Source of the DNA: Promethearchaeota archaeon
GTDB taxonomy: Archaea; Asgardarchaeota; Lokiarchaeia; Sigyniarchaeales; SOKP01
Length of the DNA stretch: 64,000 bases
NCBI GenBank assembly: GCA_030599585.1
Contig: JAUVNS010000004.1
Location: 96,001-160,000, forward strand
Reading direction: 5' to 3'
Below the pieces are notes generated by a model, which was not told the origin of the DNA, did not search any database, and saw nothing but the letters and a program-made list of their open reading frames with translations. Positions 16,010-21,304 of the stretch are shown here, one piece after another; position 1 is the first letter of the stretch; the number at the start of each line of letters is the position of its first letter. Position numbers and translations under genes: made by a program.

Positions 16010-16267
16010 TTATTTTTTTCCGCCAGTACCATGCATACAGAAAAATCCGCCTTCTAGTTCGTACTTTGGAAATAATCCACAACCAAAGCAACTACAACCA
16101 TAATCCTTAACTTCGGACATTGGTTTTTCAGTTTTTCCACGGGAACAAAACAATGCATGTGGCTCAAATTCGTTTAATTTATTAGGTTTGAACGATGGAC
16201 AAGGACCACAGAATTTACGACATTCACTCATACTTTCCTCGTCATCGGGAACCGGTTTTGGAGTCAT
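16010..16267 (-). CDS. Small Cys-rich metal-binding protein (DUF2769-like)
   Basis: CxxxCxxCPSF...LFCSRGK...GCxCxxC...FFCxxG. Confidence 0.75.
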   Translation of the reverse strand: MTPKPVPDDEESMSECRKFCGPCPSFKPNKLNEFEPHALFCSRGKTEKPMSEVKDYGCSCFGCGLFPKYELEGGFFCMHGTGGKK

Positions 16268-16824: not shown

Positions 16825-17037
16825 AAGGTGCCAATTTTAAAAATATCTCTTGTATATATAGAATGAATAAATCGATAAATATAAATTTATAGGATTTGAA
16901 GCTCCATATTCACTCAAATCGATAACCTTAAATTTAACGTAGAATATTATATCTCAAGTTTCATCAACAAATAACATGAATTTTATAACTAAAATCAAAA
17001 AGGAATATAGAGTTAAAAAAGATAATTCAAAACCAGA

Positions 17038-18159
17038 TTGATGCTTATGGTTGAAGATGGTATTGAAAGTGAAGCAATAAATAATTTAGATAAATCAGAA
17101 GAAGCAAAACAAAAATCAAGAAAGATTAATTATTTCGAAAAGCTTCTTCCGATTTGGGTGGTACTATGTATCATCATTGGTATACTTCTCTCCCAATTTA
17201 TACCCGAATTAAGTCAAGCAATAAATTCTTTGCAAATTGGAGGTATTTCTATACCAATTGGAATTTGTTTGTTTTTAATGATGTACCCTGCGATGTTAAA
17301 TCTACAAGCATCAGAATTAAAAAAACTACGCAAAAACCCAAAACCTATAGTATTAACATTAATTTCTAATTGGCTCATTGCTCCTTTTGTGGGTTTGGCG
17401 ATGATTAATATATTTCTACCTGGTACAACCGAAGATATACAACAATTAAAAGTTGCGATAATTTTACTCTCAAGTTCGCCTTGTACAGCTATGGTGTTAG
17501 TGTGGGGATGGATGGCAAAAGGTAATCAAGAACAAAATGTAGTTAATACAAGCTTAAATACGATTACTATAATCTTTTTGTACGTAGGAATGGTTTCTTT
17601 ATTAACTAGCATTCAAAATATTCTCACGCCTGGGATTGTTGTTGATCCATGGTTGTTGTTAATCTCTTTAGTATTCTTCATTGGTATTCCGTTGTTATTA
17701 GGAATTGTAAGCAAGAGATTAATTATCACTTCGAAAGGATTATCGTGGTTTAATGATAGCTATAAACCATTTGTAGGAAAAATTTCAATTGTTGCTTTAT
17801 TGACAACTTTAGTGGTTTTGTTTTCCCTAAATGGCGATGTTCTTATAAATAATCCTGATTTGCTGCTACTAATCTCAATTCCACTCTTAGTAGGTTTTGT
17901 AATAGTGGTTGCTTACAACGTTTTTATTACTAAGATTTTTAAAATGAAGTATAAAGAAGCGATTATAACAATAATTATCGGCTCATCTAGTCACTTTGAA
18001 ATTGCTATCGCAACAGCCGTCGCAATGTATGGCGTTGGGTCCATAGCGGCTTTAGGAACTACAATGGGTTTATTTTGGGAAGTACCTGTTATGCTAGCAA
18101 TGGTATATCTTGGAAAATTCCTTGGGAAACGAGGATTTTGGAAATCTAATTCAAATTAA
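17038..18159 (+). CDS. acr3: Acr3 arsenite/antimonite efflux permease
   Basis: Motifs LMMYP, NWLIAPF, PCTAMVLVW, SSHFEIAIA and EVPVM. The start may be the ATG at 17041 or 17047. Confidence 0.93.
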   Translation: MMLMVEDGIESEAINNLDKSEEAKQKSRKINYFEKLLPIWVVLCIIIGILLSQFIPELSQAINSLQIGGISIPIGICLFLMMYPAMLNLQASELKKLRKNPKPIVLTLISNWLIAPFVGLAMINIFLPGTTEDIQQLKVAIILLSSSPCTAMVLVWGWMAKGNQEQNVVNTSLNTITIIFLYVGMVSLLTSIQNILTPGIVVDPWLLLISLVFFIGIPLLLGIVSKRLIITSKGLSWFNDSYKPFVGKISIVALLTTLVVLFSLNGDVLINNPDLLLLISIPLLVGFVIVVAYNVFITKIFKMKYKEAIITIIIGSSSHFEIAIATAVAMYGVGSIAALGTTMGLFWEVPVMLAMVYLGKFLGKRGFWKSNSN

Positions 18160-18187: not shown

Positions 18188-19864
18188 TTGATAATAATGG
18201 CAGTAGTGTATATGCGTAAACTCGAACAAGAACCAGATAGCTACGATTCTAAATTCACAGCACTTACAAAGGGAGTAAATTTAAGCGTTAGAGAATGGAT
18301 ACTTAATAAAACTGGTAATTCTCAATCAATTCTGGAGGTTGGATGTGGGACTGGAAGCCTCGCCTCTAAAATGGCGTTAAAAGGAAATGATGTTACTGCG
18401 ATAGATATAAATTTTCAAATGATAAATCACGCAATGCAGAATTTTCCTCCAGATTTAAAGGAAGGAACGCTCTTATACCAAACTGGATCATTTTCCAACA
18501 TGCCTGTAGAAGAAAGGTCTCAAGATTTAGTCATTAGTACGTTTATGCTTTCAGAACTTCGACCTTTTGAACAACAAATCTTCCTTAGAAATGTTTGGAA
18601 AGTATTAAAACCAAATGGAAGATTATTAATCGCAGCAGAATTTATTCCAGATGGTTTTTGGAAGCTAATCTTTAAAATAAAAAGATGGAGATATAAAAAG
18701 AAACTTAGGCGTCTTAAATTAAGGAGCACTTTTCTGCTAAAATGGTTCTTTAGATATATCGAACCAATTGGATTCAAAATCAAAGCAAAAGAAGACTGGA
18801 AACACGGAACAATTCAAGCTCTCGAACTGATAAAACATGACGATATAGAAATTAATGAACCAGGATATTATCAACCTAGCCCAAAACGATTCAAAGGGAT
18901 AATATCGCAGCTAAGAATATATCGTTGCATTTACACAGGCCAAATTGATCTCGTTCCAATCGATCCTGGTATTTACAAATCTGGTAATCCTACTGAATCT
19001 TCTCCTATAATAGTGACAGCTAATTATGAATTCACCTACATCAAAGTAATGAGAGATCTTAAAGGTATTGATGCATGGGTATTATGTGTTGATTCTAACG
19101 GAATTAATGTGTGGTGTGCTGCGAGAGGAAATGATTTTGGAAATAATCAACTAATCGAGGCTGTTGAAGCTACTGGTATTGAAAGATTAACTAATAAAAA
19201 AACATTAATTCTCCCACAATTATCTGCAGGAGGAGTAGCCACTCCAGAATTGCAGAAAAAATCTAATGATTTTTCTTTTAGAGTTGTTTATGGACCTGTT
19301 TGGTCTAAAGATTTACCCGAATATCTTGAAAAACGCCCTGCTCGAAAACCCGATAGAATGAAGCTTGCTAAATTCACTCTAAAACATCGATTTCGTGGTT
19401 TTATCACGCACACAACATTTCTATTAAGAAAGATTTTCATGTTACCTCTCATAAGTTTATTCGTTGTGTTTCTTATCCTTAACTCTCTTAATATAACGGC
19501 TAAATTATGGTGGGTTGGTGAATTATTACTCTGGATAGTTACAGCAAATTTCATCATAACTTTTACATATCCGATTGCAAATTTCACTCGTCGGTTTATT
19601 ATTAAGGGAATTTTCTTTGGGACTTTGAATGTTTTTATTTTGGGAATGTTCTCTTATTTATTTCATAATTCGATATTTTTCACACTTATGAACATTAGTT
19701 TTTTCTTTTGGATTTCATTTTTTTCAACAATGTCGTTAAGTGGGTATACAATGGCTACTAGCCCTAGTGAAATACAAGAAGAGTATCCCATTTTTAGTAT
19801 TTTAAATAAAGTTTTATTAACCATAAGTTTGATTTCATTAGTGATTGGAATCGTTTTTCTCTAA
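18188..19864 (+). CDS. Fusion of class I SAM-dependent methyltransferase, HgcA-like corrinoid-binding domain and C-terminal TM domain
   Basis: N-terminal ILEVGCGTG, AIDIN and LKPNGRL. Central PGIY..GNP...SPIIVTANY, GINVWCAARG (cap helix), LILPQL and YGPV..KDLPEYL. Four to five TM helices ending TMATSPS. Confidence 0.88.
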   Translation: MIIMAVVYMRKLEQEPDSYDSKFTALTKGVNLSVREWILNKTGNSQSILEVGCGTGSLASKMALKGNDVTAIDINFQMINHAMQNFPPDLKEGTLLYQTGSFSNMPVEERSQDLVISTFMLSELRPFEQQIFLRNVWKVLKPNGRLLIAAEFIPDGFWKLIFKIKRWRYKKKLRRLKLRSTFLLKWFFRYIEPIGFKIKAKEDWKHGTIQALELIKHDDIEINEPGYYQPSPKRFKGIISQLRIYRCIYTGQIDLVPIDPGIYKSGNPTESSPIIVTANYEFTYIKVMRDLKGIDAWVLCVDSNGINVWCAARGNDFGNNQLIEAVEATGIERLTNKKTLILPQLSAGGVATPELQKKSNDFSFRVVYGPVWSKDLPEYLEKRPARKPDRMKLAKFTLKHRFRGFITHTTFLLRKIFMLPLISLFVVFLILNSLNITAKLWWVGELLLWIVTANFIITFTYPIANFTRRFIIKGIFFGTLNVFILGMFSYLFHNSIFFTLMNISFFFWISFFSTMSLSGYTMATSPSEIQEEYPIFSILNKVLLTISLISLVIGIVFL

Positions 19865-19916: not shown

Positions 19917-20279
19917 ATGACTGAAGCAGAATTTAAAGCAAGTTTAAGTAAATTATCTATAAAGGATTTTAAAATATTTATAAATGAAAGCTTATGCAAC
20001 AAGTGTGGTTTATGTGCAGAAGTGTGTCCTTTTGGGCTTCCACAACAAACAGATTCCGGAAAATACGATATTAAAAATCATGAACTATGTACTGAATGTA
20101 GTGCTTGTAAGAGGAATTGCCCCGTAAATGCGATCATTATGAACGAAAAGAAGGGGTGCGGTTGTTTATGGAACGCTAGAGCAAACGCAAAAAATTCCAA
20201 ATCAGGAAATAAAGACATAAATAATTGTGGTTGTGGTCCAGAAAACGAAAGTGAAACAACTTCAAGTTGTTGCGGTTAA
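19917..20279 (+). CDS. HgcB-like 2[4Fe-4S] ferredoxin with a Cys-rich tail
   Basis: CNKCGLCAEVCP and CTECSACKRNCP, then GCGC, CGC and terminal SSCCG. Directly follows the HgcA-like gene. Confidence 0.85.
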   Translation: MTEAEFKASLSKLSIKDFKIFINESLCNKCGLCAEVCPFGLPQQTDSGKYDIKNHELCTECSACKRNCPVNAIIMNEKKGCGCLWNARANAKNSKSGNKDINNCGCGPENESETTSSCCG

Positions 20280-20331
20280 AATGGTATCAAATTTTACTAT
20301 AATTTTGAACTAAAAAACATTGATTTAAAAG

Positions 20332-20790
20332 GTGGAAAAAATGGAAAAAGAAGAAATAAAAATATCGGTTAACGAAAACCAAAATAGTCAAATAAGTTTA
20401 GAGGAATCATGCTGCGGAACGTCAAATTCTTGTTGTGGTTCATCAGATTCTTGTTGTGAGGGTTCAACTTCAAAGGAATCGCCTAATACTCAAGAAATTA
20501 ATTTGAAAGAGACAGCAAATGTAGATACGAATAAAATATCTGTAGATGTATATGTTCCTCTAAACGCTTGCGAATGCGTTTGGTCTCAATTTATGAACCT
20601 TGTATTTTCGGCACTTAGCCCTTACATGAAACACATAAGGTTTGAAACAAAAGACTTAGACTCTGACGAAGCTCGAAAACTTAATTTAAATGGAAATTGC
20701 GTTGTCGTTGATGGTACAAAGAAATACATTACTTCATTCGCATTAAAGAAAGATTTACCTGTACTTCTAAAGGAAAAAGGGCTATTATAA
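20332..20790 (+). CDS. Cys-Cys-rich putative metallochaperone with thioredoxin-like C-terminal domain
   Basis: SCCGTSNSCCGSSDSCC in a low-complexity N-terminus, followed by VYVPLNACECVW and CVVVDG. Confidence 0.65.
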   Translation: MEKMEKEEIKISVNENQNSQISLEESCCGTSNSCCGSSDSCCEGSTSKESPNTQEINLKETANVDTNKISVDVYVPLNACECVWSQFMNLVFSALSPYMKHIRFETKDLDSDEARKLNLNGNCVVVDGTKKYITSFALKKDLPVLLKEKGLL

Positions 20791-20833: not shown

Positions 20834-21304
20834 ATTAAAAAAATTAAATTAACAATTTTTGGACCTGAAAAAGAGCTCGCAAACGGAATTGAGTACGAAG
20901 TATCTATCGAGGAAGAAGGATCGATAATTGAAGCATTGGCTGCTATAGATAGACAGCTCCTTAACAACCCCAAGCTTTCACCGTTTCCATTGTATAAAGG
21001 ACTAATTAAGAGCTATCTCCAATTAATCTGGGACCCCCAAAAAAACGCTATTTACGAAGACTGTGCAAGTAATGCCTATGGGCCGAACAAAGAGTTTATG
21101 CCTCTTCTGGATGATGTAAACTTCAACCTTTATCAGAACAGCGATATAACTCTTATAGTCCACGCCGATTGATGAGCTGATAACATGAGAGAACGCTTAG
21201 ATTACGGTTCATTTAAAAGAGTAATCATGAAAAAATATGGAAAAGACCACGAAACTTTTGCTCAATACTTCATAATAAAATTAAAAAATCAAAAGCAGGG
21301 ATGA
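20834..21304 (+). CDS. Candidate selenoprotein with a beta-grasp-like pattern, ATT start and UGA-UGA at 21170-21175
   Basis: AGGTGA RBS at 20822-20827 and ATT at 20834 extend the track ORF by 34 codons (MKKIKLTIFGPEKELANGIEYEV...). Then HAD-TGA-TGA and 42 more sense codons to TGA 21302. A SECIS-like hairpin lies at 21301-21336. The minimal CDS is 20834-21172. Confidence 0.55.

Follow-up and report, generated by a model that had tools for sequence, protein, structure and literature searches.

What does a small cysteine-rich protein do when its gene lies directly behind an HgcA-like/HgcB-like gene pair in an ArsR/Acr3 gene cluster? The question is raised by a gene in a 64,000-nucleotide (nt) stretch of Promethearchaeota archaeon DNA (assembly GCA_030599585.1, contig JAUVNS010000004.1, forward-strand positions 96,001 to 160,000; hereafter the window, whose own numbering is used throughout), and it bears on a wider open question, the native role of HgcAB and of its paralogues that do not methylate mercury. 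Here we place this protein, the target, in an unannotated family of predicted thioredoxin fold that carries a CxC signature, lacks the cis-proline of thioredoxins and is common in Asgard archaea, where the searched genomes gave no canonical ArsD. We propose that the target carries As(III) as a thiolate, in the manner of ArsD but through independent evolution, a reading to which we give an even chance. Through the family, a connection between arsenic and HgcAB-like corrinoid enzymes becomes testable. The elements of the gene and its product, with lengths in amino acids (aa), are the following.

20341..20790, + strand: target gene, encoding a 149-aa Cys-rich protein; likely start ATG 20341, stop codon 20788-20790 included
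20407..20469, + strand: three heptad units, SCCGTSN / SCCGSSD / SCCEGST (residues 23-43), in the variable N-terminal tail (residues 1 to ~59)
20518..20787, + strand: conserved domain of 90 aa (residues 60-149), predicted thioredoxin fold with topology beta-alpha-beta-alpha-beta-beta-alpha
20569..20577, + strand: Cys77-Glu-Cys79, the CxC signature of the family, at the N-terminal end of helix 1, the thioredoxin active-site position
20698..20700, + strand: Cys120, candidate third As(III) thiolate, at the cis-proline position of thioredoxins, Thioredoxin_3 proteins and ArsD

The target is a real, conserved gene of Asgard archaea. A word-indexed protein search returned 161 homologues at E<=0.01, named 'hypothetical protein' and drawn mostly from metagenome-assembled genomes of Lokiarchaeota/Promethearchaeota and Hermodarchaeota. 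An exhaustive search of representatives gave 51 family clusters at E<=0.001, most of them stand-alone proteins of 85-105 aa that match the C-terminal domain only. Its profile has matches in 70 of the 201 genomes sampled from this phylum; for high-quality genomes the figure is 42 of 85, and 28 of 59 genera are represented. An earlier start, GTG 20332, had been assumed in the preliminary description, which was made from the sequence alone. This codon lies inside the Shine-Dalgarno-like GGTGG (20331-20335) that precedes ATG 20341, and the listed homologues are most often 149 aa long; the protein more probably begins at ATG 20341. Pfam holds no match at E<=1 for the target or for any of 39 family representatives, and NCBIfam gave nothing significant for the target. 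Searching the PDB sequences with the family profile likewise found nothing meaningful, the best matches being a DinB-type polymerase (E 0.47) and a glutaredoxin-like protein (E 1.4).

In the alignment of close homologues a near-invariant 90-aa domain (...VDVYVPLNACECVWSQF...NGNCVVVDG...LLKEKGLL) stands behind a variable tail. AlphaFold2, run on the family alignment, returned a beta-alpha-beta-alpha-beta-beta-alpha model with a predicted local distance difference test score (pLDDT) of 93.8 and a predicted template-modeling score (pTM) of 0.81. Foldseek against the PDB retrieved thioredoxins throughout (template-modeling score 0.5-0.7, E ~1e-3), and a second PDB structure search agrees. We thus predict a thioredoxin fold with high confidence: the model shows both the core topology of the superfamily and a cysteine at the N-terminus of helix 1. 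The preliminary description had noted a compact C-terminal domain with a CEC motif and had suggested a thioredoxin-like fold; the motif is present at residues 77-79, and the fold is borne out by the model and the structure searches.

The putative active site departs from that of thioredoxins in two respects. Among the 39 representatives of the divergent family, in domain numbering, Cys18 is found in 39, Cys20 in 38 and Pro14 in 37; domain positions 18 and 20 are Cys77 and Cys79 of the protein, and the signature is CxC rather than CxxC in 38 of the 39. In the model, Cys77 immediately precedes helix 1 (model helix 19-39) and Cys79 lies in its first turn, the place of the thioredoxin CxxC. Cys120 stands directly before strand 3, where thioredoxins carry their cis-proline, and in this column the representatives have Cys (12), Ser (11), Thr (9), Ala (3), Gly (2), Lys (1) or Glu (1) and in no case Pro. 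In agreement with this placement, hhalign sets the first cysteine of the CxC on the first cysteine of the Thioredoxin_3 CxxC and Cys120 beside its cis-proline. The cis-proline normally keeps metals away from the active-site thiolates. Its loss is the change reported to permit metal binding by these thiolates in thioredoxin (PMC2665069). The CxC and the lost cis-proline argue that the family has abandoned classical disulfide exchange and, by a further step that we infer, that its thiolates are available to a soft metal or metalloid.

The second part of the protein is the tail. As previously described, it holds three CC pairs at 7-residue spacing: they are present in the translation of nt 20407-20469, occupy residues 24-25, 31-32 and 38-39 counted from ATG 20341, and are spaced by exactly 7 residues. 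A census of 120 listed homologues of the 161 found three CC pairs in 40, two in 67 and one in 10, the keyed motif being missing in 3, and the gap between successive pairs was exactly 7 residues in 146 of 147 cases. The pairs had also been read as a degenerate 21-bp DNA repeat, of which the protein periodicity stands while the DNA repeat is weak. The three 21-nt units agree pairwise at 14/21, 12/21 and 14/21 bases, and Tandem Repeats Finder, at a minimum score of 30, reported no DNA repeat at the target; the repeat is therefore maintained as protein and is not a fresh DNA duplication. As a background we used the genome's 4,545 ATG-started open reading frames (ORFs) of at least 80 aa, comprising 1.42 million residues, in which Cys makes up 1.16 % of residues and CC occurs 355 times. 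At least three CC within 25 aa were found in only 14 of these ORFs. Thirteen of them carry a contiguous CxCCxCCC-type motif, as read by eye from the printed rows, and only the target has three separated pairs. The three-pair pattern is more than chance.

The tail and the domain meet again in arsenite methyltransferases (ArsM). In one locus, L045, the target domain forms the C-terminal part of such an enzyme (NF008823, 351 bits, cut-off 263). BLASTP aligns residues 1-52 of the target with residues 1-52 of this fusion (40% identity, E 4e-7) and residues 55-149 with residues 275-370 (56%, E 8e-39), skipping the methyltransferase core. P0123, P0298 and P0299 are further ArsM::domain fusions or fragments. 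The P0299 fusion, of 390 aa, starts with MEDEEIKK and carries three CC pairs (SPCCEPTQ-SSCCGPSQ-TSCCG), and the target aligns to it likewise at both ends, the N-terminal alignment with E 5e-5. The fusions thus share with the target the M-x-x-EEIK start and the SCCG repeats, whereas the target is without the S-adenosylmethionine (SAM)-dependent methyltransferase core. Judged by these alignments, the tail is homologous to the Cys-rich N-terminal segment of ArsM and, because it aligns to both ends of the fusions, the target looks like an ArsM::thioredoxin-like fusion minus its SAM-methyltransferase core. The N-terminal alignments are short and compositionally biased, and the NF008823 model matches the target tail with only E 0.56.

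In a tree of 43 domain sequences the genomic contexts fall in separate clades; these are paralogues, and a genome often has more than one of them. Its deep nodes are unresolved and the ArsM fusions are unplaced, so the order and direction of fusion and fission are not settled by the tree. The target has the two ends of an ArsM fusion and its gene immediately follows the HgcA-like and HgcB-like genes among ArsR and Acr3, which provides a handle on whether this corrinoid system methylates arsenic and whether the target feeds it. The same genome (G000) has a canonical ArsM elsewhere, on contig C21 (122553-123404, - strand; 345 bits against a cut-off of 263), with N-terminal CC pairs of its own, so that this genome has a candidate route to methylated arsenic besides the HgcA-like cluster.

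The gene cluster of the window is composed as follows.

16010-16267, - strand: DUF2769 small Cys-rich protein, adjoining ArsR; in the same place in loci L002, L004 and L005, not seen in L007
16432..16824, - strand: ArsR/SmtB-family regulator, divergently transcribed
17038..18159, + strand: ACR3-family arsenite efflux permease, first gene of the co-directional cluster
18188..19864, + strand: fusion of a CpaM-type SAM methyltransferase to an HgcA-like corrinoid and transmembrane domain, below curated cut-offs
19917..20279, + strand: HgcB-like 2x[4Fe-4S] ferredoxin with a Cys-rich C-terminal tail (...CGCG...SSCCG)
20834..21172, + strand: orfX, a conserved 112-aa beta-grasp protein directly downstream of the target, without a canonical start codon

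DUF2769 and ArsR thus lie on the - strand, followed on the + strand by Acr3, CpaM::HgcA-like, HgcB-like, target and orfX, with gaps of 28, 52, 61 and 43 nt between successive + strand genes. Against their NCBIfam cut-offs the models score 178/275 for HgcA, 184.5/285 for the HgcAB-like fusion, 47/99 for HgcB and 141/180 for CpaM, and these HgcA-like, HgcB-like and CpaM genes are therefore paralogues, not certified mercury methylation genes. The HgcA motif is N(V/I)WCA(A/G)GK; the HgcA-like protein of the window (18188-19864) reads NVWCAARG. The tail of HgcB has a proposed role in Hg(II) delivery. The HgcB-like neighbour ends in SSCCG and follows the same logic as the target, a flexible terminus that bears vicinal thiols next to a methyltransferase of the corrinoid type, although its CC tail sits on a ferredoxin, another protein and another fold. 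In published work, hgcAB has been found beside ars genes in a gene-neighbourhood analysis (PMC7438021), its expression in P. mercurii is reported as arsenic-responsive (preprint 10.1101/2022.10.17.512643), Asgard sequences are assigned to the fused-HgcAB clade (PMC10083202), and acr3 and arsM of Asgard archaea have been reported in cold-seep material (PMC10060404). Among the papers listed in the literature searches, none deals with this small protein by title or opening of the abstract, and none combines CpaM with a corrinoid.

This setting recurs. The 30 best places from a scan of the phylum were examined with the proteins of the window as tblastn queries; Pfam was run on 113 of 133 neighbour ORFs, and the four loci left out (L033, L037, L040 and L041) were covered by tblastn. 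The target homologue follows an HgcB-like gene in 14 loci (with the HgcA-like gene visible in 13), directly follows Acr3 in 7 (in L032 the Acr3 scores 288 bits, over the acr3 cut-off), lies between ArsR and a DGC-domain gene in 8 and is fused to ArsM in 1, L045. The preliminary description had suggested a substrate shuttle for the HgcAB-like enzyme or for Acr3 and had counted a lack of association with ars or hgc genes among the grounds for refuting it; a tight association with ars or hgc-like genes holds at every locus examined (30/30). Thirteen genome loci were found to be related to the window, and the whole cluster, ArsR followed by Acr3, fusion, HgcB-like, target and orfX, is present in all four that have enough flank on the HgcA side; five others of this set hold shorter, tail-less relatives directly after an ArsR-family gene, and two hold relatives beside Acr3-like genes. 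One homologue (P0059, locus L005) is recorded as a Nanopelagicaceae bacterium. Its contig carries all seven genes of the cluster, with proteins ~80-90% identical to their Asgard counterparts, and because this locus is syntenic with the archaeal ones the contig is probably mis-binned.

Is the target then an ArsD? The preliminary description had called it ArsD-like, and the functional analogy is apt, in architecture and in ars context, while membership in the ArsD family is not upheld. An ArsD profile of 21 sequences was gathered from the arsD of plasmid R46 and compared with the divergent family profile by hhalign. Membership was rejected, with no PF06953 match at E<=1 and an hhalign probability of 0.18% over 8 columns. 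ArsD has a thioredoxin fold. Like the target domain it is small (about 90-120 aa) and encoded in ars operons, it carries cysteines in the loop after strand 1 (ArsD ...VFDPAMCCSTGVCG; target ...VYVPLNACECV), and it has a flexible tail with SCCG-type vicinal Cys pairs, the R46 protein ending in ...STSCCGGKTSCC (SCCGG..SCC). The differences are equally specific. ArsD has a CC-x4-C motif (C12, C13 and C18 invariant in its alignment) where the target has CxC (Cys77, Cys79); Pro74 is invariant in the ArsD alignment, and the target has Cys there; compared by eye, the ArsD segment EGLPLLLLDGE stands against NGNCVVVDGT in the target; the ArsD tail is C-terminal, that of the target N-terminal; and ArsD is encoded beside the ArsA ATPase, on which it acts, whereas the neighbours of the target are the HgcB-like gene and orfX. 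No arsA adjoins the target: the nearest ArsA/Get3-like gene (C40:55245-56228) is ~60 kb from it (C40:116341). Canonical ArsD (PF06953) scored over the cut-off in none of the 201 phylum genomes, nor in this genome. In ArsD, Cys12, Cys13 and Cys18 are reported to bind As(III) in three-coordinate form, facing the site of ArsA (PMC12415280).

By this analogy, As(III) would be captured by the thiols of the flexible N-terminal tail of the target, would be held as a two- or three-sulfur thiolate complex at Cys77, Cys79 and Cys120, and would be passed on by thiol exchange to the CpaM::HgcA-like protein with the HgcB-like ferredoxin, to Acr3, or to both. We infer the binding of As(III), its transfer and the identity of the acceptor. 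The third cysteine varies with the gene context across the 30 loci: the Cys120 column holds Cys in 7/7 Acr3-linked, 1/1 ArsM-fused and 9/14 HgcA-linked forms, including, as read by eye, all seven HgcA-linked forms that bear a Cys tail, and holds Ser in 8/8 ArsR-DGC forms.

Several findings weigh against the carrier reading. No ArsD sequence homology is detectable in the target (Pfam at E<=1; hhalign), and no ArsD structure is among the matches listed in three PDB fold searches, which does not by itself show the folds to be different; the analogy with ArsD therefore rests on architecture and context. The Cys120 column is Ser or Thr in 13/30 loci, 5/14 HgcA-linked ones among them. As the third cysteine is not universal, a three-sulfur site cannot be the general mechanism of the family. 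Further out, Acr3 or ArsP_1 lies near only 7 of 20 distant family members, and DGC and/or GcvH-like genes occur in 10 of these 20 regions, besides DsrE and lipoate-ligase genes. The wider family is therefore not arsenic-specific but tied to thiol/sulfur chemistry, and only the subfamily of the window is tied to arsenic. The neighbour calls themselves come from a crude ORF picker, which in 7 of the 20 distant regions took an overlapping ORF instead of the family member (Pfam was run on 150 of 151 neighbour ORFs there). ArsR-family regulators, moreover, sense other signals too. Finally, if the domain were a built-in reductant of ArsM, the same fusion of the enzyme to a thioredoxin fold would be expected (PMC6138428).

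The last point leads to the strongest alternative, which we consider clearly less probable than the carrier reading: the target would be a dedicated thiol-disulfide oxidoreductase, the built-in thioredoxin of arsenic methylation. In the oxidative methylation of As(III), enzyme cysteines reduce an As(V) intermediate and thereby form disulfides; the target domain with its ArsM-derived tail would supply or recycle the electrons, to ArsM in the fused forms and to the HgcA-like corrinoid methyltransferase in the window. Such a role suits a thioredoxin-like fold with cysteines at the active-site position and a domain that is fused to the C-terminus of ArsM while the target tail aligns to the N-terminal Cys region of the same enzyme. 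It has also been proposed that a disulfide cascade in ArsM, with the N-terminal cysteines as electron donors, is reset by thioredoxin (PMC6138428). In L026 and L036 the second gene downstream is an arsenate-reductase-like LMWP gene, and genes for ferredoxin-thioredoxin reductase and glutaredoxin lie near the distant member L075. However, CxxC and cis-proline are standard in thiol-disulfide oxidoreductases of thioredoxin fold, and the family has CxC in 38/39 and cis-proline in 0/39 representatives. Nor is there a selenocysteine variant of the CxC: in six family hits with in-frame stops, the stops lie at ORF ends, not at the CxC.

The nearest relative detected is Thioredoxin_3. The relationship is weak: hhalign gives 42% (E 2.6e-4, 73 columns, the whole domain) with 7 Thioredoxin_3 neighbours and 24% against a single Thioredoxin_3 sequence; a protein-language-model score of 0.89 served as a lead only, and hmmscan found no PF13192 match at E<=1 for the target or for 39 family members. 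Size and fold are the same, and the operon slot is shared, with ArsR-ArsP-Thioredoxin_3-DGC in P. mercurii, where the preprint names the third gene 'ArsE' (PF13192) in an ars operon (10.1101/2022.10.17.512643), set against ArsR-target-DGC in the Asgard loci of the ArsR-DGC type. In Thioredoxin_3, however, C11, C14 and P52 are invariant, giving CxxC and cis-Pro, where the target family has CxC and Cys, Ser or Thr in place of the proline. Some clusters hold both kinds of protein: classical Thioredoxin_3 (CxxC, cis-Pro) stands with distant family members in L048, L056-L058, L068 and L071, and the two are therefore not redundant, a point against the reductant reading. The carrier and reductant roles are nonetheless compatible and not exclusive.

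A bolder reading goes further. The target may be one subunit of a split arsenite methyltransferase that depends on a corrinoid, with the task of presenting and reducing the arsenic. The two ends of an ArsM::thioredoxin-like fusion would have been retained, and the SAM core would have been replaced in trans by CpaM::HgcA-like and the HgcB-like protein. We think this unlikely as matters stand; if it were true, an HgcAB-like paralogue would natively methylate arsenic and Acr3 would export the remainder.

That the target is an Fe-S cluster or Zn protein, with the CxC of two subunits (and Cys120) as ligands and a role in electron transfer or sensing, we consider improbable. The reported permissiveness of a lost cis-proline for metal binding by thiolates (PMC2665069) would suit it, as would neighbours that are Fe-S ferredoxins and DGC-domain proteins, the latter with four conserved cysteines thought to bind Zn (bioRxiv 10.1101/2022.10.17.512643). 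Yet only two cysteines of the domain are invariant, so that a cluster would need a dimer, and the close subfamily tracks Acr3, ArsR and ArsM rather than redox enzymes.

The sulfur-rich company of the distant members suggests another possibility, that the target carries sulfur or persulfide in general, or handles thio-arsenicals, the arsenic link of its close subfamily being secondary. Besides the DGC/GcvH-like genes in 10/20 distant regions, DsrE/DsrH genes were found in L067 and L070, lipoate-protein ligase in L069, L070 and L074, and rhodanese with TauE in L073. We nevertheless hold it to be quite improbable for the target, whose clade and sister clades are tied to Acr3, ArsM, ArsR or HgcA-like genes in 30/30 loci. 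In L060, L061, L063-L067, L069, L070, L073 and L074 the distant CxC-family members stand in clusters drawn from DGC proteins (some of them fused to GcvH-like lipoyl carriers), DsrE/DsrH, lipoate-protein ligases, rhodanese and TauE, often with an ArsR-family regulator, and these clusters look like a sulfur-trafficking module.

It is very unlikely, lastly, that the target carries Hg(II) to an HgcAB pair that truly methylates mercury. Vicinal thiols are good ligands of Hg(II), and HgcA-like and HgcB-like genes lie immediately upstream, but the HgcA-like, HgcAB-like fusion and HgcB-like scores are below curated cut-offs, 16/30 loci have Acr3, ArsR or ArsM and no hgc-like gene, and no mer gene was found among the seven scanned ORFs of the window or the scanned neighbours in related loci.

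An orfX homologue follows the target directly in 22 of the 30 loci, in two subtypes ending in ...VHAD or ...PDVGC, and has no Pfam or NCBIfam family match. In the window its frame has no ATG, GTG or TTG start but begins at an ATT that directly follows a TAG stop and stands 6 nt after a GGTGA motif, and the orfX homologues of L031 and L033 are likewise without a canonical start. A predicted complex of the 90-aa domain with orfX had a score of 0.01 and a mark of 0.32, which is evidence neither for nor against an interaction.

The ArsR/Acr3 intergenic region (16825-17037) holds two copies of a 10-mer, AAATCGATAA (at 16869-16878 and at 16916-16925), whose core, ATCGAT, is palindromic; it is a possible ArsR operator. 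Elsewhere in the genome, thirteen ORFs of ~270-400 aa on contigs C8, C20, C21, C24, C26 and C40 combine the C-x-CC-x-CCC-type motif with a following ferredoxin-like CxxCxxC, which makes them a large paralogous family.

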